Assembly (NCBI GenBank): GCA_028278545.1
Contig: JANQED010000128.1
Coordinates: forward strand, 11,561 to 75,560
From: Anaerolineales bacterium
Lineage (GTDB): Bacteria > Chloroflexota > Anaerolineae > Anaerolineales > UBA11858
DNA: 64,000 nucleotides
Direction: 5' to 3'
A program made the translations under genes and the position numbers. A model generated the notes under the pieces. It was given only the letters and a program-made list of their open reading frames with translations, was not told where the DNA came from and did not search any database. Positions 30,124 to 51,949 of this stretch are shown here, one piece after another (positions within the stretch are counted from its first letter, which is position 1; each line of letters starts with the position of its first letter).

Positions 30124-30133
30124 TGACAGGTAA

Positions 30134-31246
30134 ATGGATCGTAAATTGAAGGTTGGCGTGATTTTTGGTGGTCGGTCTGGGGAGCATGAGGTCTCCTTGA
30201 TGTCCGCGCGTTCTGTTTTGGACGCGCTCGATGCGGATAGATACCAGATCACAGAGATCGGCATCACTCACGATGGAACCTGGCTGGTTGGGGAGGACGT
30301 GCTGGCGTGCTTCCTGTCAGGAGAGGTCGATCACCTAACCCCGGTGACGCTGCTGCCCGACCCAACCCGCAGCGGGATTTATGCTATCCGTGACAGTGAT
30401 CGCGGCGAAGCCATACAGCATCTGCAGGACTTCGATGTTCTCTTCCCTGTTTTACACGGTACTTTCGGTGAAGATGGCACCTTGCAAGGGTTGTTTGAGA
30501 TGGCTGATGTAGCCTACGTTGGCGCAGGTGTTTTGGGCGCCTCTGTAGGGATGGATAAAGGCGTTTTCAAGGCCGTAATGCAGGCCAATGCGATCCCGGT
30601 TGTGGACGGCATCATCGTGCTGCGCCGCGAGCTTGAAACCGGGATGGATGATGTGCTTGACCGTGTCGAAGCTATGGCTGACTATCCCGTTTTCATCAAG
30701 CCGGCTAATATGGGCTCTTCCGTCGGCGTAAGCAAGTCTAAGAATCGCTCGGATTTGCTCGAAGGGCTGATGGAGGCGGCGCGCTTTGACCGGCGAGTGT
30801 TGGTCGAGGCAGGAATCAACGCTCGTGAAATAGAGATCAGTGTGTTGGGCAATGATGACCCTAAGGCCTCCATTCCTGGCGAGATACGCCCGGCGGCGGA
30901 ATTCTATTCCTATGATGCCAAATATCACGATGACCGCTCGGAGGCCCTTATCCCCGCAGATATCCCTGCTGAGACTGCTGAGGAAATGCGAACGACCGCC
31001 GTGCGAGCTTATCAGGCTATAGATTGCGCGGGGATGGCACGGGTTGACTTTTTATTAGATAAGGATAGCGGTGAGTTCTATCTCAATGAACTGAACACCA
31101 TCCCTGGGTTCACCCAGATCAGCATGTATCCCAAGCTATGGGAAGCTACTGGATTGCCTTACCCAGAATTAGTTGACCGTCTGATCGAGTTAGCCTTGGA
31201 GCGACGCGCCGAGCGCGACCGCACTGAATGGCGTTATGAGCGTTAG
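30134..31246 (+). CDS. ddl: D-alanine--D-alanine ligase
   Basis: FGGRSGEHEVSL, LHGTFGEDG, GSSVG, FYSYDAKY (Tyr-type omega loop), NELNTIPGFT. Confidence 0.97.
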   Translation: MDRKLKVGVIFGGRSGEHEVSLMSARSVLDALDADRYQITEIGITHDGTWLVGEDVLACFLSGEVDHLTPVTLLPDPTRSGIYAIRDSDRGEAIQHLQDFDVLFPVLHGTFGEDGTLQGLFEMADVAYVGAGVLGASVGMDKGVFKAVMQANAIPVVDGIIVLRRELETGMDDVLDRVEAMADYPVFIKPANMGSSVGVSKSKNRSDLLEGLMEAARFDRRVLVEAGINAREIEISVLGNDDPKASIPGEIRPAAEFYSYDAKYHDDRSEALIPADIPAETAEEMRTTAVRAYQAIDCAGMARVDFLLDKDSGEFYLNELNTIPGFTQISMYPKLWEATGLPYPELVDRLIELALERRAERDRTEWRYER

Positions 31247-31249
31247 GAG

Positions 31250-32248
31250 ATGACGAAGAGGAGACAGCCCCCAAACCGTTCTGATAGGGTCCGGGACAGA
31301 CGCCGGAGCAGCAAACCCTCTGCGCCCAAGCGGCGGCGCAAGCAGAGCAATGTTGAGCGCGGGAATCCCCCGGTGATGGTGCGCGGCACAAAGTCTACCA
31401 GCGCAGCAAAGCGACCCAAAAAGCGAACCAGACGCGTCAAACGTCGCTTTGATATCGCTCTCCCAACCCCAGGCGTGGAGGTGCGTTTGCCAGCTATCCC
31501 CTCGATCCGGCTGGGTTGGCGGTTGCTTTCCTTTTTACTGGTATTGTTGCTATCGGCAGTTTTGTACTATATGTACAATTCGCCAACCTACCGGATAACC
31601 GATGTGCAGATCGATGGGCTGGTTCGTCTTTCGGCTGATACGATCAACCGTTCGTTGCTGATTTACAACAAGCCAATCTTCATGATCGAACCGGAAGTGT
31701 TGGCAGATCAAATTATCAGCACCTATCCTGGTGTTGTATCAGCCTCAGTGTGGACGGGTTTCCCCGCCAGAGTCGAGGTGATGGTTGAGGAAAGAGAGCC
31801 TGTAGTGGCCTGGGAACTGGGTACGGAGACCCAATGGGTAGATGCCCAAGGGATGTCCTTCCCCAAGCGCGGGGAGGCGGAAAACCTGGTTTGGGTTGTC
31901 GCATCCTCCCCCCCCCCCGCCCCGATCGTCCTGGAGGATGAGTCCACAACGGAAGGAGATGAATCTCTGAAGGCGTTCATGTCATCTGAGATGGTCGAGT
32001 CGATCTTAGCTTTGAGCGGGAATGCCCCAGAGGGCGTCCCGATTGTATTCGATGATCGGCACGGTTTTGGATGGCGTGACCCAGGTGGCTGGGATGTGTA
32101 TTTCGGTACGTCTGCGGCGGATGCCGACATGACGATGAAACTATCTGTCTATGATGCCGTAGTTCGACGTCTGAGCACGGATGGGATACGTCCAGCCATC
32201 ATTAGTGTGGAGTATTTGCATGCCCCATATTACCGTATGGAGCGTTGA
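31250..32248 (+). CDS. ftsQ: Cell division protein FtsQ/DivIB
   Basis: Basic N-terminal tail, one TM, POTRA-like region, FPARVEVMVEEREPV; upstream of ftsA. Confidence 0.8.
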   Translation: MTKRRQPPNRSDRVRDRRRSSKPSAPKRRRKQSNVERGNPPVMVRGTKSTSAAKRPKKRTRRVKRRFDIALPTPGVEVRLPAIPSIRLGWRLLSFLLVLLLSAVLYYMYNSPTYRITDVQIDGLVRLSADTINRSLLIYNKPIFMIEPEVLADQIISTYPGVVSASVWTGFPARVEVMVEEREPVVAWELGTETQWVDAQGMSFPKRGEAENLVWVVASSPPPAPIVLEDESTTEGDESLKAFMSSEMVESILALSGNAPEGVPIVFDDRHGFGWRDPGGWDVYFGTSAADADMTMKLSVYDAVVRRLSTDGIRPAIISVEYLHAPYYRMER

Positions 32249-33495
32249 TGATTATGGATGAGCCTGTAATTGTTGGTATTGATGTTGGCACGACCAAAGT
32301 ATGCACTTTGGTTGCTCGTCTGGAGAGCGACCAACAGTTGCGTATTTTGGGTGTGGGTATAGAGCCTGCCAAAGGAATGCGAAAAGGCACAGTGGTCGAT
32401 ATGACGGCGGCTGGGCAGGCTATCGCCCGCTCGATTGAGAAAGCTGAACGCACATCGGGCTTAGAGATCGAATCTGCTTTGGTGAGTATGGCGGGTGCAC
32501 ACGTCTCTTCGGAGAACAGCCGAGGGGTGGCGGGCGTTTCAAGCCGGACGATTGATGACGAGGATGTCATCCGGGTGGTGGAGGCCGCCAGAGCGGTGAC
32601 CATCCCTCACAACCGCGAGATGATCCATGTCATCCAGCGGGGCTTCGTTGTCGATGGACAGGGCGGCATTCGCAATCCGGTTGGCATGCATGGTTACCGC
32701 CTGGAAGTAGAAACCCACGTGATCACTGCATCGGCGGCCACTGTGGAGAATCTGCGGCAGGCGGTTGCGGCTGCGGGTGTGCGCGCCAGCCAGTTTGTGC
32801 TCAACCCCCTTGCTTCCGCCGAAGTTGTGCTCTCTGAGACGGAGCGGGAGATGGGTGTGGTGGTTTGCGATATCGGCGGCGGTACCACGGATATGGCCGT
32901 TTATATCGAAGGCGATGTGTGGCACACGATGGTGTTGGGCATCGGCGGCAACCATATCACTTCGGATATCGCCCACGGGCTGCACCTGCCGGTGAACCAC
33001 GCAGAAGAAATCAAATTGCAGCACGGCTATGCCCTCGAAAAGCATGTTGATGCCGAGGAGGCTTTCTATATAAACCCCTTTGGAGAAGAGAACCCGGTGT
33101 CCATCAACCGCAAGGAGCTGTCTCATATCATCGAAGCCCGCGTCGAGGAGATCTTTAGCCTGGTGATGCAGGAGATCAAACGCTCTGGTTATGACAGCTT
33201 GTTGCCTGCCGGGATGGTTTTGACCGGAGGGGTCAGCGCTTTGCCGGGTATTCGCCAGTTAGCCAAACAGGTGCTGGGTATGCCGGTGCGGGTTGCCCAG
33301 CCGGAAGGCTTGATCGGCATGGTGGATCAATTAGATTCTCCCGCATATGCAACCAGCGTAGGTTTGCTGCGGTGGGCCATATTGATGAGCGATTTTGTCA
33401 AAACCTTCGACCTGCGTCGTGCACGCCCGCCTCGGGTAAGCAGCGAAGTCGATTGGAAGAAGATGAGAGGTTGGCTGCGGCGATTGTTGCCGTAG
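32245..33495 (+). CDS. ftsA: Cell division protein FtsA
   Basis: IDVGTTKV, DIGGGTTD, GGNHITSDIA, AEEIK, VLTGG; C-terminal amphipathic helix. Exact start uncertain (32245-32254). Confidence 0.97.
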   Translation: MMIMDEPVIVGIDVGTTKVCTLVARLESDQQLRILGVGIEPAKGMRKGTVVDMTAAGQAIARSIEKAERTSGLEIESALVSMAGAHVSSENSRGVAGVSSRTIDDEDVIRVVEAARAVTIPHNREMIHVIQRGFVVDGQGGIRNPVGMHGYRLEVETHVITASAATVENLRQAVAAAGVRASQFVLNPLASAEVVLSETEREMGVVVCDIGGGTTDMAVYIEGDVWHTMVLGIGGNHITSDIAHGLHLPVNHAEEIKLQHGYALEKHVDAEEAFYINPFGEENPVSINRKELSHIIEARVEEIFSLVMQEIKRSGYDSLLPAGMVLTGGVSALPGIRQLAKQVLGMPVRVAQPEGLIGMVDQLDSPAYATSVGLLRWAILMSDFVKTFDLRRARPPRVSSEVDWKKMRGWLRRLLP

Positions 33496-33639
33496 ATAGT
33501 TTAAGGAAATTAATGTGTCTGGTTTTAAGACGTTTGGTAAAATGGGTGAATCCTTGTGTAAATTTCTTTTGACGCCGGAAAACGAGCATGTTTGTGCGCA
33601 AAGGAGATTTTCTAAGGATGAATCGAGGAGGATTCAATA

Positions 33640-34743
33640 ATGCATACAATGAATCAACCAGAGTCATTTGCTCGCATTAAAGTGGTTGGTGTAGGCGGTG
33701 GAGGCTGCAATGCCGTCGATCGAATGATCGAAGAGGGCTTGCAAGGCGTTGAATTCATCGCGGTCAATACGGATGCCCAGGCGTTGGCACTCTCGCACGC
33801 CACAACCCGCGTTCGTATTGGTGATAAACTGACGCGCGGCCTGGGTTCAGGCGGCGATCCCGAAATTGGGCGCAAAGCCGCGGAGGAGTCGGCTGAAGAA
33901 CTCTACAATGTGCTCAAAGGCTCGGATATGGTCTTTGTCACCGCGGGGATTGGCGGAGGTACGGGGACGGGTGCCTCTCCGGTCATTTCTCAGATTGCCC
34001 GTGAGATCGGCGCGCTGACGATTGGCGTGGTCACGCGTCCTTTCACCTTCGAGGGTGCTCGCCGCATCAAGTCAGCGGAAGTGGGCATCACTGGGCTCAA
34101 GGAGCACGCCGACACCTTGATCGTCATTCCTAATGACCGCCTGCTGCAAATCGTCGATAAGCGTTCATCTTTGCAGGAAGCCTTCAAGGTCGCTGATGAC
34201 GTTCTGCGTCAGGGCATCCAGGGTATCTCAGAGTTGATCACCATTCCTGGTTTGATCAACCTTGACTTTGCGGATGTGCGGACGATCATGTCAGAAGGTG
34301 GGGCTGCTTTGATGGCTGTCGGTATGGCAGCGGGTGATGACCGCGCTCGCGATGCTGCTGAGCAGGCTATCTCCAGCCAACTGCTCGATATAACCATCGA
34401 TGGCGCTCGCGGGATTCTGTTCAACGTGACTGGCGGGCAAGGGTTGACGCTCTTCGAAGTCAACCAGGCGGCTGCCATTATCAAAGAGACCGCTCATCCT
34501 GATGTCAACCTGATTTTCGGCGCCGTGATCGACCCCGACATGGGAGAGAATTTGCGCATAACCGTTATTGCCACGGGTTTTGAAAGGTCTGGTATGCCGC
34601 GCAATATCATGGAGCGCGCTCTTCGGCCACCTGAGGTCACTCCAGCGAAAAGTGAGGAAGGCGAGTTCAAGCCGCGTACCTTGAATACAGAAGACCTGGA
34701 TATCCCCACATTTTTGAGGAACCGAGTCCGGTCCGATAGTTAG
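33640..34743 (+). CDS. ftsZ: Cell division protein FtsZ
   Basis: [32 protein letters not shown]-terminal LDIPTFLR. Confidence 0.99.
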
Positions 34744-34807
34744 TTTTCCAGTTAAAAAAGTAGAGATAGCCGGCCCTCCTCCTGGTCATCTCTAGTTATC
34801 TGTATAG

Positions 34808-34850
34808 CCAGGCTCCCCGCTAATGCTTTCGGGCGGGGAGCTTGGGTTTT
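34808..34850 (+). terminator. Intrinsic terminator after ftsZ
   Basis: CCAGGCTCCCCGC...GCGGGGAGCTTGG followed by GTTTT. Confidence 0.65.
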
Positions 34851-34958
34851 GCCCCCGGTCTCCCCTCGGGCATTGATTGTCCTGAATGCCCGAATCACGC
34901 CACAGTGCTTCCTTTTCTTAAAGATTTAAATATTTTAAGGTATTCGCACTAAGGTCGC

Positions 34959-34987
34959 TTGCATATATAGATCAAGCGTGCTAAAAT
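34959..34987 (+). promoter_or_regulatory. Promoter of nrdR-nrdJ
   Basis: TTGCAT-N17-TAAAAT with extended -10 TG. Confidence 0.7.
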
Positions 34988-35001
34988 GGTCACTCCCAAA
35001 A

Positions 35002-35048
35002 CCGCTACATGTGAGGATTTCGGGTGGTGGTACCCCCAAATATGGGGG
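35002..35048. promoter_or_regulatory. Tandem NrdR boxes
   Basis: CCGCTACATGTGAGGA (35002) and CCCCCAAATATGGGGG (35033), 31 bp apart, resembling acaCwAtATaTwGtgt. Confidence 0.7.
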
Positions 35049-35066
35049 TTCCCTAAGGATGATTTT

Positions 35067-35519
35067 ATGCTGTGTCCTTATTGCCAGAATGCGCGTTCAC
35101 GAGTAATCGATACCACAAAAGATAAGCGTGGGGGTGTACGCCGTCGTCGAGAGTGTCTTAAATGCGGGCAGCGTTTCAGCTCTTATGAGCGTCCGATTCT
35201 GGCAACACCCTTACTCATTAAAGAAGATGGTACCCGGGAAGAGTTCGACCGGGAGAAGCTCTTGCGGGGCATTCAAATCTCGTGTGCGAAACGGCCCGTC
35301 TCCGCGGCTGATATCCAGCGGTTATCGGGGGAGATAGAAGCGTCTTTGCAGGCTTTGGGGAAAGCAGAGGTATCTTCACGGGTGGTGGGGGATATGGTTA
35401 TCGCTGGTTTGAAAGAATTAGATCATATAGCATATATCCGTTACGCGATTGTTTATTTGGGGTTAGATGATCTAGCCTCTATTCGCAAAGAAATCGATCG
35501 TTTGCTCGAGGCGAGCTAA
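35067..35519 (+). CDS. nrdR: Transcriptional repressor NrdR
   Basis: MLCPYC, RRRRECLKCGQRFSSYE, ATP cone, AYIRYA. Start reset to 35067. Confidence 0.97.
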   Translation: MLCPYCQNARSRVIDTTKDKRGGVRRRRECLKCGQRFSSYERPILATPLLIKEDGTREEFDREKLLRGIQISCAKRPVSAADIQRLSGEIEASLQALGKAEVSSRVVGDMVIAGLKELDHIAYIRYAIVYLGLDDLASIRKEIDRLLEAS

Positions 35520-35585
35520 TCGAATGGGGTTTCATCAGTGGGGTATCGTTTCGCCATGTTTTTATTATCGTCGCAGGAGTGATTA

Positions 35586-38159
35586 ATGGTTTTAAAAGAT
35601 GTGAACACAGAACAAATACCTTCGTTGCCAGAAGACGCACGCCAGGTGGATCTGTCGGAAAACGCATATCAGGTGTTTAGGCGGCGTTACATGCGTCGAG
35701 ACAAGCATGGGCAACCGGCTGAGACGATCGAAGGTACTTTCTGGCGAGTGGCTTGTCATATCGCAGCTGCTGAAGGAGGATGGGGTGAAGATACCTCTGA
35801 GGTGGCGCGCCGGTTTTATGATCTGCTTGTCGAAAAACGATTTCTGCCAAACTCCCCCACCTTCACTGGCGCGGGGACGCCTCTAGGACAATTGGCTGCC
35901 TGTTTTGTGCTGCCCCTCAGCGATGATATGGGGCGCTGGCATGATGGTATTTTCCAAACCCTGCGCAATGCAGCTTTGATTCAGCAAACGGGTGGCGGGA
36001 ATGGTTTTTCATTCTCGCGCCTGCGACCAGCGGGATCCTTCATCAAGACCTCTGCCGGAAAAGCGACCGGCCCGGTGGGGTTCTTGAGTGTTTACGATAA
36101 AGCATTCGGGGAGATCGCCCAGGGCGGTACGCGCCGAGGGGCGAATATGGCCGTCTTGCGGGTAGATCATCCCGATATTGAAGATTTCATCACCTGTAAG
36201 ACCGATGAAAACGCCATCACAAACTTTAACATCTCTGTGGGGATCACAGATGCCTTTATGCAAGCCGTCGAAGATGACGATTTGTGGGAATTGCGCTTCC
36301 CAGACATCGATCATCCGGATTATCGCAAGTATAGCGGGACGATTGAGCAAGCTGAAGCGGATGGTATACCGATCAAAATCTATAGACGCGTGCGAGCTAG
36401 GGATTTGTTCGATAAGATCGTCGCGCAGGCCCATCATAATGGCGAGCCGGGAGTGCTCTTTTTAGATGCTGCCAACCGCGCTAATCCTGTTCCGCAATTG
36501 TATGCTTTAGAGGCCACAAATCCGTGCGGCGAGCAATTTCTAGGCCCTTATGAGAATTGCTGCCTGGGCTCGGTCAATCTGGCTCAGCACATGGGACCTG
36601 ATAATTCTGTCGATTGGTTGAAGCTGCGGACTTCAGTTGAGTTGGCGACGCGTTTCCTGGATGGTGTTGTCGATGCCAACGCTTATGTCCCTGATGTACC
36701 GGAGTTGAGAGAAGCTGCTCTCAATGCCCGGAGGATTGGATTGGGCATCATGGGCTTGGCAGATTTGATGTACCACATTGGCATCCGGTATGGTTCTTCT
36801 GAAGGGCAGGAGTTCGCAGCCCAGGTAATGGAGTTTGTGCGCTATTACGCGATGCGTACCAGTATCGATCTGGCGAAAACAAGCGGCGCGTTCCCGGCAA
36901 TCTCAGGGAGCATTTACGACCCGACCGATATGACCTGGGAGCCGCCTTCATCGATCGTGCCATACCGGATGGATTGGGGCCGTCCACAGTTGGATTGGGA
37001 TGAGATCGTTAAAGGAATTCAGCAATATGGCATTCGCAATGCGGCTCAGACTACCATTGCGCCTACGGGCACCATTGCCACAGTAGCTGGCTGTGAAGGT
37101 TACGGCTGCGAGCCGGTCTTTGCGTTGGCTTATATCCGTCATGTGGATGATGGTGGCGAGGATCTGGCACTTACTTACTCCAGCCCGTTGTTTGATGAGG
37201 CCTTGGTCGATGCTGGCTTGGATGAAGATGAGCGTCAGCAGATTATCGAGCAAGTATTGGAGAGCGGCACGTGCCAGAATGTGGAGATGGTGCCGGAACA
37301 CTTGCGTGACACCTTTGTGGTATCACAGGATATTTCGGCGGTAGAGCATGTTCAAATGCAGGCCGCCTTGCAGGCCTTCGTGGACAACAGTCTCTCTAAG
37401 ACGATCAATTTTCCTGAAGATGCTATGGAGGAAGATGTCGCCACGGCCTATAAATTGGCCTGGGAGTTAGGCTGTAAGGGGACAACAGTTTACGTCACCG
37501 GCTCACGCCATAAGGTCGTCTTGGAAACGCAAACTACGGCTATGGGGAAAGGAGATGGTGACAGAGCGATTGTCCCCCAGGCGGCTCATTTGACTCTTTG
37601 GCATGATACCAAGAAGCCACGCCCGCGCCGTTTGAAAGGGTACACCTATAATGTCAACACGCCATTAGGCAAAGCCTTTGTGACCGTCAACGAGAATGGG
37701 GACGATCAGCCTTTTGAGGTGTTTATCACATCTGCCAAGGCCGGCTCGGACACTGCTGCGGTCTCAGAAGCGATTGGCCGTTTGCTCTCTTACACATTGA
37801 GATTGGCATCCCCCATTGCTCCGCGCGAGCGGCTGTACGAGATTGTGCTACAGCTCTCGGGGATTGGCGGCGGACGCCCCTTGGGGTTTGGCCCCAACCG
37901 GGTGCGCTCCTTACCCGATGGCGTCTCTCAGGCTTTGCGCGAGTACCTGGATCACTCCCTCGATGAGTACGCCTGGCGTGAAGTCGACCGCGACAACGGG
38001 CAGCCTGATGAACCTTTTGGATTGCCCCACGATGGCTTAGATGACTCTCTCCAAGGGTCTTTTGAAATCGGAGATTTATGCCCGGATTGTGGGCAGGCAG
38101 CCTTGGTCAACGAGGAAGGCTGTAGGAAATGTTACGCCTGTGGGTACAGTGAATGCTGA
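35586..38159 (+). CDS. nrdJ: Adenosylcobalamin-dependent (class II) ribonucleotide reductase with C-terminal TSCPD-like/Zn-ribbon region
   Basis: FLPNSPT, LAACFV, RRGANM, TNPCGEQ, IAPTGT, SKTIN; C-terminal CPDC...CYACGYSEC; no beta subunit nearby. Confidence 0.93.
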
Positions 38160-43483: not shown

Positions 43484-44569
43484 ATGACTAAAAGACTATC
43501 CATCCCCTTATTGATCGCCATCTTATCTGCAATGCTGATGAGCAGCATGGCCCTGGCAGCCGAGGATACGCCTCAAGGCCGCGGGCAGAGCATGTATGGT
43601 GAGATCGTCGCTGTCGCTGTTGACGGTTTTACCGTACAGAATCAGGCTGGTGAGCAGGTTACTTATCTCATTGATGAGAAAACCAGCTACAGGTCTTCAG
43701 AGATCGAGGAGCCGGGTCTCTCGGATTTGCAGGTTGGCGGCAAAGTGGCTGTTTTTGCACCAGGAAGGCCCCCAGAGAGTCCGACAGCTCGCCTGGTGAT
43801 CTTGCTGCCCGATGATTTCGACCCCAGCCAATGGGCGGGCGTTCGGGCACGCGGTGAAATCGTCGCGGTTGACCTGGATGCGGGCAGCTTCGTCCTGCAA
43901 ACCAATTCCGGCGAGGAACGGCCCTTTTTGGTTGACGACACAACCCGATACTTCGGTCAGTTATCAGGCTTGCGTGATTTGCAGAGTGGTTGGGAAGCTG
44001 GTGTCGGTGGCGTGGAGACCGATGATGGCGACCTGTTAGCTAAATTCGTCATTGGTGTCGATATTCAGAACGCCAAAATCCACGCTGGTACGATCACCGG
44101 GGTGATCCCTAGCGCGGGAACATTCACCCTGCAAACTCGCCAGGGTGAAGAATGGACCGTCGCTGTAGATGAAAACACCCGTTACAACAGCAGGGCTGGC
44201 GAAATTGCCGGCCTTGATGATCTGGTTCCAGATATGGTGGCGATGGTCTATGGTTCCCCTCAAGATGAGGGTGTTTTCCTGGCAAAACGCGTCATTGCTG
44301 TAGATGTCGAAGACCTGCCCAACTACGATGTAAAGGCCTTTGGTCAAATTACCGCTGTTAGCGAAGATTCGTTCACCATCCAACCCCGTAACGGTGATGA
44401 AAGGACCTTCTTGGTTGACGAAGAAACCAGCTTTCGCGCCCGCGAGGGCGAAGTGAATGGTTTAGATGATCTGGAAGACGGCATGTTTGCCCTTGTGGGT
44501 GCGTACGAAACGGAAGATGGGCAGTTGCTCGCTAAACTGATCTTCGTGAGAGCGCCTCAGACCCCCTAA
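43484..44569 (+). CDS. Secreted protein with four DUF5666-like repeats
   Basis: Signal peptide ending ALA; four ~80-aa repeats GxIxAV...F.....G.E....VDE.T.Y....L.DL..G..v.V.....A. Confidence 0.7.
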   Translation: MTKRLSIPLLIAILSAMLMSSMALAAEDTPQGRGQSMYGEIVAVAVDGFTVQNQAGEQVTYLIDEKTSYRSSEIEEPGLSDLQVGGKVAVFAPGRPPESPTARLVILLPDDFDPSQWAGVRARGEIVAVDLDAGSFVLQTNSGEERPFLVDDTTRYFGQLSGLRDLQSGWEAGVGGVETDDGDLLAKFVIGVDIQNAKIHAGTITGVIPSAGTFTLQTRQGEEWTVAVDENTRYNSRAGEIAGLDDLVPDMVAMVYGSPQDEGVFLAKRVIAVDVEDLPNYDVKAFGQITAVSEDSFTIQPRNGDERTFLVDEETSFRAREGEVNGLDDLEDGMFALVGAYETEDGQLLAKLIFVRAPQTP

Positions 44570-44693: not shown

Positions 44694-45692
44694 TTACATA
44701 ACAAATTGCTTTAGGATCGTATCGACGATCAAGCCCAATAAGAACCAGCTTCCAAAGCGCTTGTTATGGTGAAATGCTGCTGCGACGAAGTAATTGGGCC
44801 ACACGTCTGGGTAATCATCGGGTTTCTCTGCCGGCTTGGGGGCCTGGAACATGGGCCAAATCTCCAAAAATACTTTCACATTTAGAGCCACGATCAACAT
44901 AAACGGTGTGAAAAAGCCTGTTGCAATCAGATAGAAGGTGAAAAGATACTGGAAGATCAGCATTCCCATGACAGTGAAACGAGATATTTTCTCGCCAAGG
45001 ACGACAGGCAGTGTGCGGATATTCTTGTCCCTGTCTACCTGGTACTTGTCGATGTGTTTGCCGAAGATCACCCCGGTAACTCCTAAGGCGTAGGGTAAAC
45101 TGGCGATCACCACGTTCCAGTCCCACCCACCTGCGATCACATAGTAGCCGCCACCGATCATCAACGGCCCCCATACGATAAGGACGGCGATTTCCCCCAG
45201 GGCGATATATTTCAGCGGCCAGGTGTAAAATAATACGAAGAAAGCCCCTAATCCCATGAACCACAGCGTCGACTCGCCGCGCAGGAAGATCAAAGCCACC
45301 CCGCAGGCCGCGGCCAACAACCCAGTTACCGCGGCATAGGTCAGCAGCCCTCTTTTGTCCAACAGCCCATGAACCAAGGGTTGCAGCCCGTATTGGGAGC
45401 GGTAATAGTTGTCTTGATCGACACCACGGGTGAAATCGGTGTAGTCATTGAGCAGGTTGTTGGTGGCATGGGCCAGGATCAGCCCAAGGGTAACCAGAAC
45501 CCACAACCCCAGATCGAAATTTCCCGCTCGATAAGCAAACATCCCCGCCAGCGCAGCCGAGAGGAAGGTCATGACTAACACGGCTGCACGAGTGGCGATC
45601 AACCACTTCGAAACGATATCGAGTTCCTCCCACTCCGCTTTACTAATGCGGGGGATGACGCGCAAGGCGTTTCGCCACATCGCAATATTCAT
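44694..45692 (-). CDS. menA: UbiA-family prenyltransferase (MenA-like)
   Basis: ATR, NNLLNDYTDFTRGVD, YTWPLKYIALGE, D...D....RTLPV.LG. Confidence 0.75.
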   Translation of the reverse strand: MNIAMWRNALRVIPRISKAEWEELDIVSKWLIATRAAVLVMTFLSAALAGMFAYRAGNFDLGLWVLVTLGLILAHATNNLLNDYTDFTRGVDQDNYYRSQYGLQPLVHGLLDKRGLLTYAAVTGLLAAACGVALIFLRGESTLWFMGLGAFFVLFYTWPLKYIALGEIAVLIVWGPLMIGGGYYVIAGGWDWNVVIASLPYALGVTGVIFGKHIDKYQVDRDKNIRTLPVVLGEKISRFTVMGMLIFQYLFTFYLIATGFFTPFMLIVALNVKVFLEIWPMFQAPKPAEKPDDYPDVWPNYFVAAAFHHNKRFGSWFLLGLIVDTILKQFVM

Positions 45693-45788: not shown

Positions 45789-46997
45789 TCAGCCTAGAGT
45801 GTCGATCACCTCGTGCAATATCTGGCTGACGATTTCAACCTGTTCTTCCGTCATCACGCCTGAAAAAGGAATCGCGAGTCCGCGGCGGCCTAAATCTTCC
45901 GTGATGGGGAAGTCGCCCTCTTTATACCCAAAGCGTTCGACCATATATGGCTGCAAGTGAATGGGGATGAAATAGGGCCGGCTGGGGATGCCGCGTTCTT
46001 TAAGCCCCTCGGCGACTCGAAAGCGGTCGATTCCGGGAGCGAGCCGAATCACATAGACGAACCAGCTCATGCGCGTTGTGTCAGGAATAACTTTCGGTGT
46101 TTCAACACCGGGTATCTCATCCAGCCGCTCTTGGTACCAATTGGCGACTTGTTCCCGTTTGGTGAGGAGTTCATCGAGGCGGCTCATCTGCACGCGCCCA
46201 AGAGCAGCGCTCATCTCGTCAATGCGATAGTTGTAGCCCAAATAAGTGTGTTGCAGCCAGGTATCGCCGGGGGAGCGCCCCTGATTTCGCAGTGCGCACA
46301 TGATATCAGCGGCCTCATCATCGTCGGTGACGATAATTGCCCCTTCTCCGGTGGTGATCTGCTTGTTGGGGTAGAAGGCAAATACGCCATAATCGCCCAG
46401 GGTCCCCGCGGGACGTTTCTTGTACTCAGCACCGATTGCTTCGCAAGAATCCTCGATGACCGTGAGATCGAACTCTCGAGCAGTTTCGAGGATAGGGTCC
46501 ATATCCGCCGGTTGCCCAAAGACATCTACAGGAAGGATTGCTTTCAGTTGCGCCTCTGGGGATGCTCCTTTCCGGGGAAGCCATTTTCGGTTTGCCAAAT
46601 CCCCAGCGGTCAAGTCCTTCGCCGCTTGGTGAACCTGCTGGGGATCGATATTGCCTGTCAGAGGGTCTATATCTACAAATATAGGCACAGCACGCTCAAA
46701 CAGCAGCACATTCGCCGATGCAACAAATGAGAACGGCGTGGTGATCACCAGGTCACCGTCTTTGATATCTGCGGCATGAACACACAAATGCAGACCGGCG
46801 GTTCCTGAGCTGACTGCAATGGCATGTCGGCTACCGATATGATTTCGAACGGCGTCTTCGAAGCCTAGTGTCTCTCCCCCCATGCTCAGGCGCGTGGTTT
46901 CCAAGACGGCTTGAACGGCCTCTTGCTCGGTTTCTGTCAGGTCAGGGGCTGACATTGGCACAAGGGGGAAGGCGTTGGAGGGGTTTGTTTTCTTCAA
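45789..46997 (-). CDS. DegT/DnrJ/EryC1/StrS sugar aminotransferase
   Basis: AVSSGTAGLHL, TPFSFVAS, IEDSCEAIG, PLP lysine in FYPNKQITTGEG, GYNYR. Confidence 0.95.
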   Translation of the reverse strand: MKKTNPSNAFPLVPMSAPDLTETEQEAVQAVLETTRLSMGGETLGFEDAVRNHIGSRHAIAVSSGTAGLHLCVHAADIKDGDLVITTPFSFVASANVLLFERAVPIFVDIDPLTGNIDPQQVHQAAKDLTAGDLANRKWLPRKGASPEAQLKAILPVDVFGQPADMDPILETAREFDLTVIEDSCEAIGAEYKKRPAGTLGDYGVFAFYPNKQITTGEGAIIVTDDDEAADIMCALRNQGRSPGDTWLQHTYLGYNYRIDEMSAALGRVQMSRLDELLTKREQVANWYQERLDEIPGVETPKVIPDTTRMSWFVYVIRLAPGIDRFRVAEGLKERGIPSRPYFIPIHLQPYMVERFGYKEGDFPITEDLGRRGLAIPFSGVMTEEQVEIVSQILHEVIDTLG

Positions 46998-47132
46998 ATG
47001 GGAACCTTCTCTACACGTATGAAATCATAGCGCGTCGTGATTGACGGCGGCTGGAGGTTGAAAGGGGAGTTGCGGTCAACCAATTACGGCAGGAATCATA
47101 CCATAACAACCCATATGATAGAATCTCTCAGT

Positions 47133-47747
47133 ATGTTTCTCCCAGCGGATGTTCCCTTGTCGAAGCGCATCTTCGATTTATCCTTGACCATACCGGGTTT
47201 GATCCTCATTTCACCACTTTTAGCGGTCGTGGCTATTCTACTGCGACTCTTCCATGGTAAACCTGTCTTATTTAGCCAGGTGAGGCCTGGCTATCGAGGT
47301 GAGTTGTTCGCAGTATATAAGTTTCGCACCATGACCGACCGCCGCGATGATGCTGGAAATCTGCTCCCAGACGAGCAGCGCTTGACCAGGTTGGGGCGTT
47401 TTTTGCGGGGTACCAGTCTGGATGAGTTGCCGGAGTTATTCAATGTGTTGCGCGGTGAGATGAGCCTGGTAGGGCCGCGCCCTTTGTTGGTGCAATACCT
47501 GGAGCGTTACTCTCCTGAGCAAGCACGCCGCCACGATGTACTTCCAGGGATCACAGGTTGGGCGCAAATCAATGGCCGCAATGTGCTTTCTTGGGAAGAT
47601 AAGTTCCGCCTAGATGTCTGGTATGTTGATCACTGGTCTTTATGGTTGGATATCAAAATTCTGGCATTGACCTTCTGGAAAGTGATCAAGCGCGAGGGGA
47701 TCAGCCAGCCCGGTCATGCAACGGCGGAAGAATTTATGGGAAATTAG
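47133..47747 (+). CDS. Bacterial sugar transferase (PglC-like monotopic phosphoglycosyl transferase)
   Basis: KRIFD, KFRTM, SLDELPEL.NVL.GEMSLVGPRP, PGITGWAQING. Start placed at ATG 47133 (47115 is an alternative). Confidence 0.93.
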   Translation: MFLPADVPLSKRIFDLSLTIPGLILISPLLAVVAILLRLFHGKPVLFSQVRPGYRGELFAVYKFRTMTDRRDDAGNLLPDEQRLTRLGRFLRGTSLDELPELFNVLRGEMSLVGPRPLLVQYLERYSPEQARRHDVLPGITGWAQINGRNVLSWEDKFRLDVWYVDHWSLWLDIKILALTFWKVIKREGISQPGHATAEEFMGN

Positions 47748-47829: not shown

Positions 47830-48726
47830 ATGAATTATATCGGTGAGATCGCTGCTCTGGCCACATCGTTGGCCTTTTCTTTTGGTTCGACTTTTCTGAC
47901 CCTTGGCGGACGCCGCGTTGGCTCGATGGTGCTCAATCGCACGCGCTTGCTGCTGGCGATCCTGTTCCTCGGCGTGACTCATTGGGCCACGTTGGGCATC
48001 CCCCTGCCGTTCCAGGCTGAACCCCGTCGCTGGCTGTGGCTGGGTCTATCCGGCATCGTCGGTTTGGTGCTGGGGGATATCTTTCTTCTCCAGGCTTTCG
48101 TGTGGATTGGGCCGCGCCTTTCGATGTTGATGATGAGTTTGGCTCCAATCTTCGCCGCCTTCCTGGCCTGGATATTTCTCGGTGAGCGCATGGTGTGGGG
48201 GCAGATTGTTGGTGTCGTCTTCACCGTGACGGGGGTGGCATGGGTAGTGCTAGAGCGCAACGGCAACAAGAAAGTTGCTAACCCCCATTTCGCCCGCGGC
48301 ATCCTCTATGGGCTGGGTGGTGCGATTGGTCAGGCAGCCGGGCTGGTGCTGGCGAAGAACGGCCTGGGCGGCGACTTCTCGCCCATCTCAGCCAACCTCA
48401 TCCGCATGATCACGGCGGCATTGGTCTTGTGGGTGATTACCTTGATCCAGCATCAGGTCAAAGCGACTGTGTTGACTTTGCATCGTAATCGCCGTGGGAT
48501 GCTGCATATTCTGTTGGGCTCGTTTTTTGGGCCTTTCCTGGGTGTCTCGCTTTCGATGTTGGCGATTCAACATGCCGAGATGGGCGTAGCCAGCACGCTG
48601 ATGGCCTTGCCTCCGGTCTTTTTGCTTCCTATAAGCTATGTTGTCTTCAAGGAGCGCTACGGCTGGGGAGCCATCCTGGGCACTTTTGTCGCTACCGCGG
48701 GTGTTGCGGTGCTGTTTCTGGTATGA
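47830..48726 (+). CDS. DMT/EamA family transporter
   Basis: About 10 TM in two repeats; LSGIVGLVLGD, LAPIFAAFLAWIFLGE. Confidence 0.9.
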   Translation: MNYIGEIAALATSLAFSFGSTFLTLGGRRVGSMVLNRTRLLLAILFLGVTHWATLGIPLPFQAEPRRWLWLGLSGIVGLVLGDIFLLQAFVWIGPRLSMLMMSLAPIFAAFLAWIFLGERMVWGQIVGVVFTVTGVAWVVLERNGNKKVANPHFARGILYGLGGAIGQAAGLVLAKNGLGGDFSPISANLIRMITAALVLWVITLIQHQVKATVLTLHRNRRGMLHILLGSFFGPFLGVSLSMLAIQHAEMGVASTLMALPPVFLLPISYVVFKERYGWGAILGTFVATAGVAVLFLV

Positions 48727-48771
48727 ACTGTGTTGGGGATCGTGGATTTCATACAGTATAATTCTCCCGCA

Positions 48772-50715
48772 ATGACGGATTCAAACGATCTTTACCGCCA
48801 GCTTTACCGCATCCGCCGCTTCGAGGAGACGGTCTTAGATAACTTCTCTAAGGGAGTGTTTTTTGGGACGACGCACACGTATTTAGGGCAGGAAGCCAAT
48901 GCAGTTGGCGTGCTGGCGCATCTGCAGGATGGCGAGATCGTTTTCAGCAATCACCGCTGCCATGGGCATTTTTTGGCCTATGGCGGTGATATGCGCGCGC
49001 TTTTTGCCGAATTGATGGGCAAGTCCACAGGGGTTTGCGGCGGGCGGGGGGGCTCTCAACATCTGCACTGGCAGAACTTCTATTCCAACGGCGTGCAGGG
49101 CGGCATCCTGCCTGTCGCTGCGGGCATGGCGCTGGCCGAAAAACGGAGGCAGAGCGGCAAACTTGTCATTGCCTTTTTGGGTGACGGCACATTCGGTGAA
49201 GGCGTGCTCTATGAGGCGCTCAACATGGCTTCGTTGTGGGAGGCGCCGATTTTGTTTGTAGTCGAGGATAACCGCATTGCCCAGACGACGCCGGTAGAAC
49301 TGGCCCTGGCCGGGTCGATAACCTCCCGGTGCATGGCCTTTGATATCCCTGCGGTTGAAATCGATTCCAGTGGCGTGTTGGAGGTCTCGTCGCATGCAGA
49401 GCGGTTATTGGATGAAATCCGACTTCAAGGTGGTCCGCGGGCTTTGGTCGTACATACCTGTCGGTTTGGGCCTCATTCCAAAGGGGATGACACGCGAGAC
49501 CCTGCGGTGGTTGCCGCCTTCAGGCGCGAACGTGATCCCCTGATGATCCATGCACCCCGCCTTGACCCGGAGGCGCGCGCCGCCATCGAAGCTGAAGTCA
49601 ACCTTGAAGTGGAAACGGCCTTTGCCCAGGCGATGGATGATCCATGGCCGGTCGCTGATTGGCAGCCGTCCGTGCAAACGACCCAACATCAACCATCAAC
49701 ATCCAGCGACCAACCTAGCGTGCTTAAATCTCTCAACGCCGCCCTTCATCAGGCCCTTTCCAAAGATGATGGTTTCGTTGTATTGGGTGAAGATATCCTG
49801 GATCCTTACGGGGGAGCGTTCAAGGTCACTCAGGGGCTCTCAGAAGCGTTTCCTGAGCGTGTTTTGACCACCCCTATCTCTGAAGCGGGCATCGTCGGTG
49901 TGGCGGCTGGGATGGCTTTACGCGGCCTGAGGCCGGTTGTGGAGATCATGTTTGGGGATTTCGTCACCCTGATCGCCGACCAGGTGATCAATCATGTTGC
50001 CAAGTTCCGCTGGATGTACAACGATCAGGTGCGAGTCCCCTTGGTGATCCGCACGCCGATGGGCGGGCGGCGCGGTTATGGCCCCACCCACAGCCAGACG
50101 CTGGAGAAGCTCTTTTTGGGTGTGCCGGGCCTGCGCGTCGTAGCGCCTACGGCCTTGGGCGCCCCGGGTGATTTGCTGGCCCAGGCCATTATAGATGACG
50201 ACCCCGTTCTGTTTGTGGAGAATAAGCTGCTGTACCTGCAAAAACTTCACCACGGAGATGTTTTGAGCGATTTTGAACTGCACAGTCATTCAGTATCTGG
50301 CACATATGCGCCTACATACACCCTTTCGATGCGGGGAGCGCCCGCGCCGGGGCTGACCATCCTGGCTTATGGGTACATGGCTGAATTAGCCCGGCAAGCA
50401 GTGTTCCAACTGGCGTATGAGCATGAGATTTTTGCTGAGTTGGTCGTGCCGACGCAGCTTTCCCCCTTTGAAAATGATCCCATCAGCGCATCCATTGGGC
50501 GCACGCGCAGAGTATTGGCCGTGGAAGAGGGCACCCTGACCCTGGGCTGGGGCGCAGAAATCCTGGCTCGCGCATCTGAAGAGATGGGGACTAATTTGCT
50601 CGTTTCTCGGCGGGTAGCGGCACGGGATTTGCCCATTCCCGCCTCGGGTCCGCTGGAACAGGCGGTGCTTCCCGGCGTCGCCGATATTGTCGAGGCTGCC
50701 CGAAAGATGGTATAA
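48772..50715 (+). CDS. Fused 2-oxoacid dehydrogenase-type E1 alpha/beta (ThDP enzyme)
   Basis: Alpha: HTYLGQEA, NHRCHGH, GRGGSQH, ThDP motif GDG...EDN, RFGPHS. Beta: LGEDI, TPISEAG, VEIMFGDF, YGPTHSQ, VEEG. Confidence 0.92.
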   Translation: MTDSNDLYRQLYRIRRFEETVLDNFSKGVFFGTTHTYLGQEANAVGVLAHLQDGEIVFSNHRCHGHFLAYGGDMRALFAELMGKSTGVCGGRGGSQHLHWQNFYSNGVQGGILPVAAGMALAEKRRQSGKLVIAFLGDGTFGEGVLYEALNMASLWEAPILFVVEDNRIAQTTPVELALAGSITSRCMAFDIPAVEIDSSGVLEVSSHAERLLDEIRLQGGPRALVVHTCRFGPHSKGDDTRDPAVVAAFRRERDPLMIHAPRLDPEARAAIEAEVNLEVETAFAQAMDDPWPVADWQPSVQTTQHQPSTSSDQPSVLKSLNAALHQALSKDDGFVVLGEDILDPYGGAFKVTQGLSEAFPERVLTTPISEAGIVGVAAGMALRGLRPVVEIMFGDFVTLIADQVINHVAKFRWMYNDQVRVPLVIRTPMGGRRGYGPTHSQTLEKLFLGVPGLRVVAPTALGAPGDLLAQAIIDDDPVLFVENKLLYLQKLHHGDVLSDFELHSHSVSGTYAPTYTLSMRGAPAPGLTILAYGYMAELARQAVFQLAYEHEIFAELVVPTQLSPFENDPISASIGRTRRVLAVEEGTLTLGWGAEILARASEEMGTNLLVSRRVAARDLPIPASGPLEQAVLPGVADIVEAARKMV

Positions 50716-50815
50716 CATATGCGGCGGCTTGCTACGCTGAATATTCTGTTACTCGATTCCATTGTTGCTCCGGGAGTCGGAGGAGTCTTCATGAACGGAC
50801 GATTACCTTGAAAGG

Positions 50816-51949
50816 GTGGGGCAGGCTGAATTGGGCACACATAATTCCATAATCATCCCCCTGATCAACCCCAACGAACCCGAGGCCTTGCTGGCCGACT
50901 TGCATGTTGAAGATGGTCAGCGGGTTGCCGCGAACGAGTTGATCTGTACGCTGGAAACGACCAAATCTACGGCTGAGGTGTTGGCCGAGGGCGAGGGCTT
51001 TATCGTTGGGCTGCGTTTCAATGTCGGTGATACGGTGCGGGCCGGGGACATTCTGTGTTATCTGGCTGACTCGCCTGATGAGTTGCCCCAAGAAGCAGAA
51101 TCAACAGCGTTGGATGCCGGCAACCAGGTTGAAGGTGAGACCGAGGCTCCCCCTGAAGGGCTGCGCATCACCCAACCAGCGCTGAATCTGGCCCGGGAGC
51201 TAGGCGTCCCATTGGATGCATTTCCGATAGGCCCCCTCGTTACTGAGCAGATGGTCAGCGCGCGGGCGCGGGATCAGGAGGTCGCCTTCCAAGTCCCCAA
51301 GGGCGAGTTCGATCCCATGGCGATCATCATCTATGGCGGCGGTGGACATGGCAAGGCGCTGCTGGACTTATTAAGGGCCTTGGGCACTTACCGCATCGTG
51401 GGATTCGTGGACGATGGTCTTGCGGCTGGCGAGCAGATCATGGGGGCACCGGTCTTGGGCACCGGGGAGGTGCTGGGGGATTTGTTCGATCAAGGTGTGC
51501 GCTTGGCGGTCAACGCCGTGGGCGGCATTGGCGATGTGGCTGTGCGGGTGGAGGTCTTCCAACGCCTGGCGGAGAACGGCTTTAGCTGCCCGGCGGTGGC
51601 CCATCCAAGGGCCTATATAGAACCAGGCGCAACGTTAGCCCCGGGAGTGCAAGTATTCCCAAACGCTTATGTGGGCAGCGATGTCCGGGTTGGTTTTGGG
51701 AGTATTGTCAATACGGGGTCAATAATCTCGCACGATTGCACCTTGGGCAACTATGTCAATATATCCCCTGGAGCCATCCTGGCAGGGGAAGTCGCCGTAG
51801 GAGATGGCGCTCTGGTGGGGATGGGGGTGACGGTCAATTTGCGAGTTGAGATCGGCGCTGGTGCCCGCGTGGGGAATGGCGCAACGGTGATATCTGATGT
51901 GCCCGCCAATGGAGTGGTGCGTGCCGGAACGATCTGGCCGGATAGATAA
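50816..51949 (+). CDS. Fusion of lipoyl domain, peripheral-subunit-binding-like domain and PglD/NeuD-type sugar acyltransferase
   Basis: Lipoyl motif LETTKSTAEV...GDTVRAGDIL; ITQPALNLARELGV (PSBD-like); YGGGGHGK...GFVDD (PglD N-domain); hexapeptide repeats with NTGSIISHDC. Start uncertain. Confidence 0.85.
   Translation: MGQAELGTHNSIIIPLINPNEPEALLADLHVEDGQRVAANELICTLETTKSTAEVLAEGEGFIVGLRFNVGDTVRAGDILCYLADSPDELPQEAESTALDAGNQVEGETEAPPEGLRITQPALNLARELGVPLDAFPIGPLVTEQMVSARARDQEVAFQVPKGEFDPMAIIIYGGGGHGKALLDLLRALGTYRIVGFVDDGLAAGEQIMGAPVLGTGEVLGDLFDQGVRLAVNAVGGIGDVAVRVEVFQRLAENGFSCPAVAHPRAYIEPGATLAPGVQVFPNAYVGSDVRVGFGSIVNTGSIISHDCTLGNYVNISPGAILAGEVAVGDGALVGMGVTVNLRVEIGAGARVGNGATVISDVPANGVVRAGTIWPDR

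Follow-up and report, generated by a model that had tools for sequence, protein, structure and literature searches.

The window analysed here, a stretch of 64,000 nucleotides from an Anaerolineales bacterium (contig JANQED010000128.1 of assembly GCA_028278545.1, positions 11,561 to 75,560 of the forward strand), harbors two adjacent genes on the plus strand that are the subject of this study: The first encodes a fused alpha/beta E1 of the type known from 2-oxo-acid dehydrogenases, and the second encodes a fusion protein in which a lipoyl domain and a module resembling the peripheral subunit-binding domain (PSBD) of E2 subunits precede a sugar N-acyltransferase. According to the list of open reading frames (ORFs) and Pfam, the E1 gene ends at 50715 and starts either with GTG at 48730 (661 residues) or with ATG at 48772 (647 residues), the latter being the start used both by a first-pass annotation made from the sequence alone and by the database gene call. 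The gene for the fusion protein (50816-51949, with an alternative TTG start at 50831) specifies 377 residues that form a lipoyl domain, a linker, the PSBD-like module, a PglD_N lobe and a left-handed beta-helix. Both genes belong to a compact gene cluster that is flanked by a cell-division/ribonucleotide-reductase region on one side and by rpsO-pnp on the other. The source genome is 84.87% complete, and most of the genomes surveyed in this work are metagenome-assembled.

The first-pass annotation had described the E1 as a fused alpha/beta protein with an intact thiamine diphosphate (ThDP) motif, and this description holds. Pfam detects E1_dh at residues 25-307 (E 6.7e-48), Transket_pyr at 329-502 and Transketolase_C at 541-653, with the alpha part comprising residues 1-320 and the beta part residues 321-661. 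GDG151-153, Asn181, His249 and His454 are invariant in an alignment of 48 sequences. When the protein is aligned to the human, P. putida and T. thermophilus E1s, His249 corresponds to the GHS histidine of human E1 alpha and His454 to the HSQ histidine of E1 beta subunits; we take these two residues to act in decarboxylation and in the reductive acylation of lipoamide. The three domains, the ThDP/Mg motif and both active-site histidines are those of the heterotetramer (alpha/beta) type of E1, in which the ThDP-bound intermediate is discharged onto a lipoyl group. The attempt to assign a substrate by family models failed, as all NCBIfam equivalogs scored under their cut-offs (PDH_E1_alph_y, 230.4 versus 393.85; PRK09212 for E1 beta, 201 versus 321). 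The alpha half is nearest to the alpha subunit of human pyruvate dehydrogenase (PDH), the beta half is nearest to the beta subunit of branched-chain 2-oxo-acid dehydrogenase (BCKDH), and the E1s of this group are named pyruvate or 2-oxoisovalerate dehydrogenase in the databases. A single fused reading frame was found in 15 of the 69 loci described below, i. e. in the window and its near relatives, and most of the others have separate alpha and beta genes; the fusion of the two E1 parts is a local trait that lies outside the definition of the system.

The fusion protein begins in the manner of an E2. Its lipoyl domain (residues 10-85; 50843-51070), which the first-pass annotation had recognized together with the lysine of an ETTK motif, was delimited by Pfam, hhalign and the strands of a structural model; the Biotin_lipoyl family matches residues 24-83 (E 7e-11), and Lys50 of the motif (codon 50963-50965) does not vary among the family representatives (109 of 109), whose identity to the window protein is 28-55%. 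Five further residues, Glu47, Ala122, His263, His306 and Asp307, are each conserved in 90% or more of this set. The PSBD-like two-helix module (residues 117-155; 51164-51280) was located by hhalign, profile matches and predicted helices. A profile built from the 109 sequences aligns, over 146 columns that cover the lipoyl domain and, position for position, the PSBD, with one of the genome's own canonical E2s (hhalign probability 98.6%, E 6.6e-16), the PSBD loop of the fusion protein being three residues shorter, and it matches residues 210-374 of the E. coli E2p chain, through the PSBD (E 7e-34). An AlphaFold2 model based on the alignment of the 109 members (mean predicted local distance difference test score, pLDDT, of 91.9) predicts a beta-barrel at residues 10-84 (strand pLDDT 93-98), helices at 120-129 and 144-155 and then a bilobal acyltransferase; residues 86-116 form a flexible linker in the model, with residues 96-106 disordered (pLDDT <50).

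The C-terminal half of the protein (51320-51946) is a class I sugar N-acyltransferase made up of a PglD_N lobe (residues 169-253) and a beta-helix (254-377). Pfam finds PglD_N at 170-251 (E 5e-13) and Hexapep at 289-324, and the protein passes the NCBIfam model TIGR03570 for NeuD/PglB/VioB with 180.1 bits against a cut-off of 160.8. In a Foldseek comparison, PerB superposes on the modelled half with a TM-score of 0.89-0.90 and an rmsd value of 1.1 Å, and PglB-ATD, PglD and VioB match it by fold as well (0.85-0.90 including PerB) and by sequence. The catalytic histidine, already pointed out in the first-pass annotation within a SHDC motif, is His306 (codon 51731-51733): It is kept in 108 of the 109 representatives and aligns with PerB His141, the residue mutated in 4eaa (H141N), and the equivalent residue of VioB (His135) is described as the catalytic base of class I sugar N-acetyltransferases (PMC9271549). 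Moreover, Asn299 (104 of 109) and Arg244 (109 of 109) are the equivalents of the conserved Asn and Arg of these enzymes (VioB Asn128 and Arg72), and G324 is also conserved. By model score, predicted fold and catalytic residues the fusion protein is a member of the NeuD/PglB/VioB family. It has in common with PerB, PglD, PglB-ATD and VioB the fold, the nucleotide-sugar lobe, the catalytic His, the conserved Asn and Arg, and a neighborhood of DegT aminotransferase, 4,6-dehydratase and PglC-type transferase genes; it differs from them by about 165 additional N-terminal residues, by having an E1 as partner and by its proposed acyl donor, an acyl-lipoyl group instead of acetyl-CoA.

In line with the earlier claim that the C-terminus is of the PglD/NeuD type and not an E2 core, the CAT-fold catalytic domain PF00198 has no Pfam match in the fusion protein. 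Since this core is lacking and the C-terminal half is a beta-helix, the protein is not an E2. It resembles the E2 of PDH- and BCKDH-type complexes in its N-terminal lipoyl domain with a lysine at the beta-turn, in the flexible linker, in the PSBD-like two-helix module and in the E1 encoded immediately upstream, and as far as the acyl-lipoyl stage its mode of action is probably that of an E2. It departs from the E2 in having a PglD-type beta-helix trimer in place of the PF00198 core, and the proposed acceptor is an amino sugar rather than CoA. One may ask whether the protein could nevertheless be an unconventional E2, in which the beta-helix would unload the acylated lipoyl arm onto CoA or a carrier protein and another enzyme would decorate the sugar. 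A lipoyl domain and an acyltransferase that hand a C2 unit to an acyl carrier protein (ACP) are indeed known: In the QncN/QncL/QncM system (and in SclQ1-4), which provides glycolicacyl units in nonribosomal peptide pathways, a ThDP-dependent E1-like enzyme loads a C2 unit on a lipoyl domain for delivery to a non-CoA acceptor, with QncL passing it to the ACP QncM (PMC6335953). This system is the nearest precedent for a lipoyl arm that delivers to a non-CoA acceptor. According to the same text, it uses an E2-type catalytic domain, ACP as the acceptor and a transketolase-like E1 acting on ketose phosphate; in the fusion protein, which has no E2 catalytic domain, a beta-helix enzyme serves as the transferase, and a nucleotide sugar is the presumed acceptor. 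As the C-terminal half is equipped as a complete sugar N-acetyltransferase of class I with PglD_N lobe, Arg244, Asn299 and the catalytic His, and as Pfam finds no E2-type CAT domain in the protein (the loci were not searched for an ACP gene), we regard an unconventional E2 as highly improbable.

The donor site of the acyltransferase half bears on the question whether CoA is used. In VioB, PerB, PglD and Pcryo_0637, 16 residues are absolutely conserved, among them a glycine (Gly182) with its C-alpha atom at 3.3 Å from the pantothenate moiety of CoA and those of a C-terminal Gly/Pro turn that shifts upon CoA binding (PMC9271549). Unlike PerB, PglD and VioB, most of the fused members have neither element: The glycine at the pantothenate side is kept in 29 of 109, with Asn, Tyr and His as the next commonest residues, and 22 of 109 have a G-x(1-3)-P motif at the C-terminus, many proteins ending about 15-16 residues past Asn354. 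The loss of both CoA-linked elements in most fused members fits a relaxed selection on CoA binding. A signature of the donor site that separates fused from standalone enzymes was not found among the 109 fused and ten standalone sequences. Asn354 was considered as a marker specific for the fused proteins and rejected: It is invariant in the 109 fused sequences and is present in all ten standalone relatives too, where the CoA-using structures PglB-ATD, PerB and PglD have Ala, Ala and Gly, respectively. VioB has Met183 within the turn that PMC9271549 describes.

The co-occurrence of the fusion protein and its E1 across genomes had been named beforehand as a test of the original proposal, and the two genes do indeed travel together. 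In a scan with one genome per species we found 79 loci, 76 of them with Chloroflexota-type titles (mostly Anaerolineales) and three from Actinomycetes. Ten loci with less than 2.3 kb of upstream sequence or with a missing N-terminus were left out of the upstream count; of the other 69, 63 have an E1 beta part directly upstream and in the same orientation, in most cases at a distance of less than 200 nt, and alpha and beta are found together upstream in 57. We looked into the six loci that deviate, using whole genomes for five of them, and two of the three from Anaerolineales have a 68%-identical fused E1 on another contig. At these two loci (L016:7008-7796 (-) and L078:5906-6760 (-)) the fusion gene has moved next to a gene for a META-domain protein, and the E1 gene on the other contig is located beside genes for a polyprenyl-phosphate phosphoglycosyl transferase (PGT) and an EamA transporter in the first genome, and beside EamA only in the second, on a shorter contig. 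The pairing extends to distant members of the family. Metagenome contigs, which were scanned with an alignment of 60 such members, yielded 80 loci, 79 with the full architecture and one with the C-terminal half only. When the 21 of the 79 with less than 700 nt of upstream sequence are left out, an E1 C-terminus is directly upstream in 56 of 58 loci; in 22 of them this E1 is only 34-45% identical to that of the window. Seven metagenome loci that we inspected have G+C contents of 28-69%.

A similar picture emerged from 401 genomes of the same order that were queried separately with three probes: the first 165 residues of the fusion protein (E <= 1e-15), the beta part of the E1 (E <= 1e-75) and the whole fusion protein (E <= 1e-40). 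The cut-offs were set such that canonical E2 and E1 proteins would be kept apart from orthologs. The lipoyl module was present in 155 genomes and the E1-beta ortholog in 156; both were present in 149, only the module in 6, only the E1 in 7, and neither in 239 (these tallies include one genome marked unpublished, G523, with both module and E1). Thus, 149 genomes with both face 13 in which the two are apart. A natural control is provided by 24 genomes that have a close homolog of the acyltransferase and no lipoyl module: 21 of them have no E1; in the remaining three, the E1 matches are only weak (about 1e-80) in two genomes, and the third has a partial match to the fusion protein (residues 77-375). 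By their labels, the 24 genomes span five families of the order, and the two families supplying 17 of them also contain genera with fusion protein and E1; a coupled loss or gain of module and E1 has probably happened more than once. Among seven loci fetched from a sample of the phylum, E1 is upstream in 4 of 4 fused versus 0 of 3 standalone genes. The three standalone genes, which have no E1 nearby (L111:8372-8995 (-), L112:2481-3104 (+) and L113:8265-8921 (-)), encode proteins 53-60% identical to the acyltransferase half and have the appearance of natural reversions to an ordinary enzyme of the PglD type; a PGT gene is directly upstream of two of them (L111 and L112). Because the pairing holds down to 34-45% identity of the E1 and breaks in the absence of the lipoyl module, it supports the idea that the E1 type of the window serves the lipoyl domain of the fusion protein.

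These data also bear on the possibility that the E1 is a sugar C-branching enzyme that transfers a C2 unit from pyruvate to a nucleoside diphosphate (NDP)-keto sugar, and that the lipoyl domain is vestigial or required for assembly only. PDH E1 alpha/beta homologs of this kind, Plm8/Plm9 and AviB1/AviB2 of the branched-chain deoxysugar pathways of paulomycin and avilamycin, act in nucleotide-sugar pathways, where such pairs use pyruvate to attach a two-carbon side chain to deoxysugars (PMC4802897, in its available text), and the cassette discussed below passes through a 4-keto sugar step. What sets them apart is the C-C bond that these enzymes make on a keto sugar. The available text names Plm8 and Plm9 alone as the side-chain system and no lipoyl partner, and the word 'lipoyl' occurs nowhere in it. 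In our data set, the E1 tracks the lipoyl module and not the acyltransferase domain, as 21 of the 24 module-less genomes are devoid of it. Moreover, Lys50 and His454 of the beta part, the latter presumably involved in the reductive acylation of lipoamide, are invariant, and the DegT aminotransferase uses the same keto position. A C-branching function of the E1 is therefore very unlikely in our view.

The genes around the pair are those of a glycan cassette. On the minus strand, a UbiA-family prenyltransferase gene (44694-45692) encodes a MenA-like protein that is below all NCBIfam cut-offs and of uncertain membership in the system, and the next gene (45789-46997) encodes a sugar 4-aminotransferase of the DegT/PglE/PseC type (Pfam DegT_DnrJ_EryC1, E 4e-106). 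On the plus strand follow the genes for a small PglC-like PGT (47037-47747; Pfam Bac_transf, E 3e-65) and for an EamA-type transporter with ten transmembrane segments (47830-48726; Pfam EamA), which is located 4 nt 5' of the E1 gene. PglF-like and PseB-like dehydratases are encoded elsewhere in the genome. The pair is often found within such a PglF/E/D/C-like cassette. The clearest layout is that of a metagenome locus of 28% G+C, in which two GT4 genes with an unassigned ORF between them are followed by E1, the fusion gene, DegT, a Polysacc_synt_2 dehydratase and PGT; this is the logic of a PglF/E/D/C-type (bacillosamine-type) cassette plus an E1. The glycan genes are less constant near the fusion gene than is E1. 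When the count is restricted to loci flanked by 3 kb or more on each side (52 of the 79 genome loci and 18 of the 80 metagenome loci), DegT turns up within 6 kb of the fusion gene in 28 of 52 genome loci and in 9 of 18 metagenome loci; the corresponding figures for PGT are 26 of 52 and 6 of 18. A UbiA-family gene lies within this distance in 14 of the 52 genome loci and EamA in 6; by tblastn (E <= 1e-10), EamA has a match in 9 of the 79 related loci. Roles of the UbiA prenyltransferase and the EamA transporter in providing a lipid carrier or as a flippase are possibilities. The cluster is adjoined by a gene (43484-44569, plus strand) for a secreted-looking protein of 361 residues with DUF5666 repeats, weak homologs of which (32-37% identical) occur near the cluster in four other loci (L024, L025, L029 and L056). 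Farther away (29179-38159), an ordinary murB-ddl-ftsQ-ftsA-ftsZ block is followed by nrdR and a ribonucleotide reductase of the class II type with a TSCPD domain; this region is unrelated to the pair.

Starting from the observed architecture, residue conservation, gene pairing and glycan context, we consider it rather probable that the two genes specify a lipoyl-dependent machine for sugar N-acylation, which is similar to a 2-oxo-acid dehydrogenase in which the CAT-fold core has been swapped for a trimeric beta-helix of the PglD/PerB type. In this scheme, the dedicated E1 would decarboxylate a 2-oxo acid on ThDP, pyruvate being the default guess, dock at the PSBD-like module and reductively acylate a lipoyl group on Lys50, as suggested by the strict co-occurrence and the conserved catalytic residues. 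The lipoyl domain would then swing on its linker of about 30 residues into the cleft that, in enzymes of the PglD type, receives the pantetheine arm of acyl-CoA. There, His306, to which we assign this role by homology, would deprotonate the 4-amino group of an NDP-4-amino-4,6-dideoxy sugar, and the amine would attack the thioester of the putative lipoyl donor. The sugar would come from the neighboring DegT aminotransferase, and the N-acyl sugar would pass to the PglC-like transferase, as suggested by the gene context; finally, the dihydrolipoyl arm would be reoxidized by an E3 encoded elsewhere. Acylation of lipoyl-Lys50 by the E1 is the simplest reading because the only lipoyl domain encoded alongside is on the acyltransferase, no CAT-fold E2 is adjacent and the E1 is lost together with the module. 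From these sequence features we infer the lipoylation of Lys50, the docking, a direct hand-over to the amino sugar that would make the reaction independent of CoA, the identities of sugar and acyl group, and the use of an E3. Taken together, the sequence of steps from reductive acylation by the E1 to transfer by the beta-helix to an NDP-4-amino sugar, with the E3 acting in trans, seems to us moderately likely.

Several observations weigh against this mechanism. The piece that we assign to a PSBD gave no match with Pfam E3_binding, even when isolated and searched at E = 10, and the conserved Arg residues of canonical PSBDs, which have a role in these domains, are not visible in the family consensus. 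The anatomy described in the first-pass annotation is present throughout, with one reservation for the PSBD-like module: The alignment with a canonical E2 and the two predicted helices agree with a PSBD, no curated family model recognizes the module, and its identity rests on profile alignments and the predicted fold. Together with the shorter loop and a locus that has no linked E3, this is a further difference from the E2 of known complexes. Linked E3 genes are rare: When two E3s from related genomes were used in tblastn searches, an E3-like gene was detected in only 1 of 166 related loci plus the window, and a linkage of E3 to the pair was therefore rejected. There are also exceptions to the pairing. 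One fusion-bearing Anaerolineales genome has only a 37%-identical E1, and the three Actinomycete fusion proteins (41% identical) have no dedicated, adjacent E1: In the two genomes searched, the nearest one (52-54% identical) is encoded at a different place, and in the one that was examined it is followed by a lipoyl-domain gene that probably encodes a canonical E2. At two of the Actinomycete loci (L070:6961-7995 and L071:6952-7974), the gene directly upstream of the fusion gene is of the sulfotransferase family instead of E1. Since the sampled genomes are related, counts such as 149 versus 13 overstate independence and allow no valid statistical test, and the Fisher p-value calculated for this profile does not count as a valid probability. 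Furthermore, the window protein and its clade keep Gly353 and G371...P375, as do the ten lipoyl-less relatives, and because of this retention the acyl donor of the window protein may still be acyl-CoA. Acyl-CoA use by this clade would make the repeated loss of module and E1 easy to understand. Finally, if the acyl group is a plain acetyl group, an advantage over acetyl-CoA is not evident.

Some of these points are what one would expect if the fusion protein was an acyl-CoA-dependent PglD-type enzyme that is merely tethered near the E1 and a canonical E2 core for the channelling of newly formed acyl-CoA, or if it was an acetylation or redox sensor of the lipoyl pool. The retained Gly353 and terminal G...P turn, which the window protein shares with its lipoyl-less relatives, fit such an arrangement, as do the canonical E2s and E3 in every fusion genome examined and the Actinomycete fusion proteins without a dedicated E1. 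It would leave unexplained why a dedicated E1 without an adjacent CAT-fold E2 has been conserved (63 of 69 and 56 of 58 loci). The sole target for the discharge of an E1 is a lipoyl group, and the fusion protein has the only lipoyl domain encoded alongside. Mere docking would not require the invariance of Lys50 in all 109 representatives, and most of the distant members have lost both CoA-linked elements. For these reasons, tethering or sensing appears unlikely to us, even if it deserves more weight than the other two alternatives, and transfer of the acyl group from the lipoyl arm to the amino sugar remains the reading that we prefer.

As stated in the first-pass annotation, the window contains no E3 gene; the two Pyr_redox_dim matches of the genome are on other contigs. 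Supply of E3 and of the lipoyl group in trans is possible, because this genome and five of five near-complete relatives encode canonical E2s, E3-type genes and two genes each of the lipoate/biotin ligase family. The idea that genomes with the fusion protein are devoid of ordinary lipoyl enzymes, in which case their E3 and lipoate ligase could have been assigned to the pair, had to be rejected, as all five relatives have 3-4 canonical E2 matches. A third PF00198 match (G000:C189:2899-3651; L082/L083) is a frame of 298 residues in which no lipoyl domain was detected, i. e. a short E2-catalytic-like protein. The sole E3-like gene found near a pair (L137:2142-3497) encodes a flavoprotein that is 31% identical to the E3s of the related genomes and is located about 1 kb downstream of the fusion gene.

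The family is large. A library clustered at 50% identity contains 532 representatives at E <= 1e-30, and 112 of the best 150 have 340-400 residues; the best 120 matches in the 90% library all carry Biotin_lipoyl, PglD_N and Hexapep and are named, where they have a name at all, NeuD/PglB/VioB acetyltransferase, EpsM or hypothetical protein. Look-alike clusters with Biotin_lipoyl and Hexapep in the ESM Atlas come most commonly from Chloroflexota, Pseudomonadota, Planctomycetota and Actinomycetota, phylum labels that are leads only. Within its own phylum the trait is concentrated in this order, since only 5 of 301 genomes of an even sample, this one included, had a full-length match. Among 208 matching plasmid records, none covers at least 80% of the query, and all match the acyltransferase half only. 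The first-pass annotation knew no characterized example of this architecture, and in the full texts that we searched (subscription journals and supplements being outside the scope of the search) no description of a lipoyl-PglD/NeuD fusion or of E1-dependent sugar N-acylation was found. One candidate precedent that combines 'lipoyl' and 'NeuD' in a glycan context (PMC4875605) was discarded, since in its available text 'lipoylation' means fatty acylation.

Whether the pair stands for a wider principle is a question on which the arguments seem to us evenly balanced: There may be an undescribed and widespread class of minimal complexes that consist of an E1 and a trimeric beta-helix 'E2 surrogate', with a lipoyl arm that moves acyl groups from 2-oxo acids to nucleotide amino sugars without a CoA thioester. 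Since the E1 sets the donor, different lineages may install different acyl groups, and E1s with identities down to 34% may provide different, possibly non-acetyl N-acyl groups on the bacillosamine-type sugars of the cell envelope. If the proposed mechanism is true, the swinging-arm chemistry of lipoyl domains, which is known to act toward CoA and, in the Qnc system, ACP, would extend into glycan biosynthesis, and CoA-independent amide formation on sugars would be a new mode of glycan tailoring. It would also explain why E1 genes occur in polysaccharide loci without a neighboring E2, and it would correct the annotation of these pyruvate/2-oxoisovalerate dehydrogenase E1s and of their NeuD/EpsM acetyltransferase partners. 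Moreover, as the acyl group is set by the E1, such pairs would be a possible source of unusual N-acyl sugars and a compact tool for acylation from cheap 2-oxo acids.

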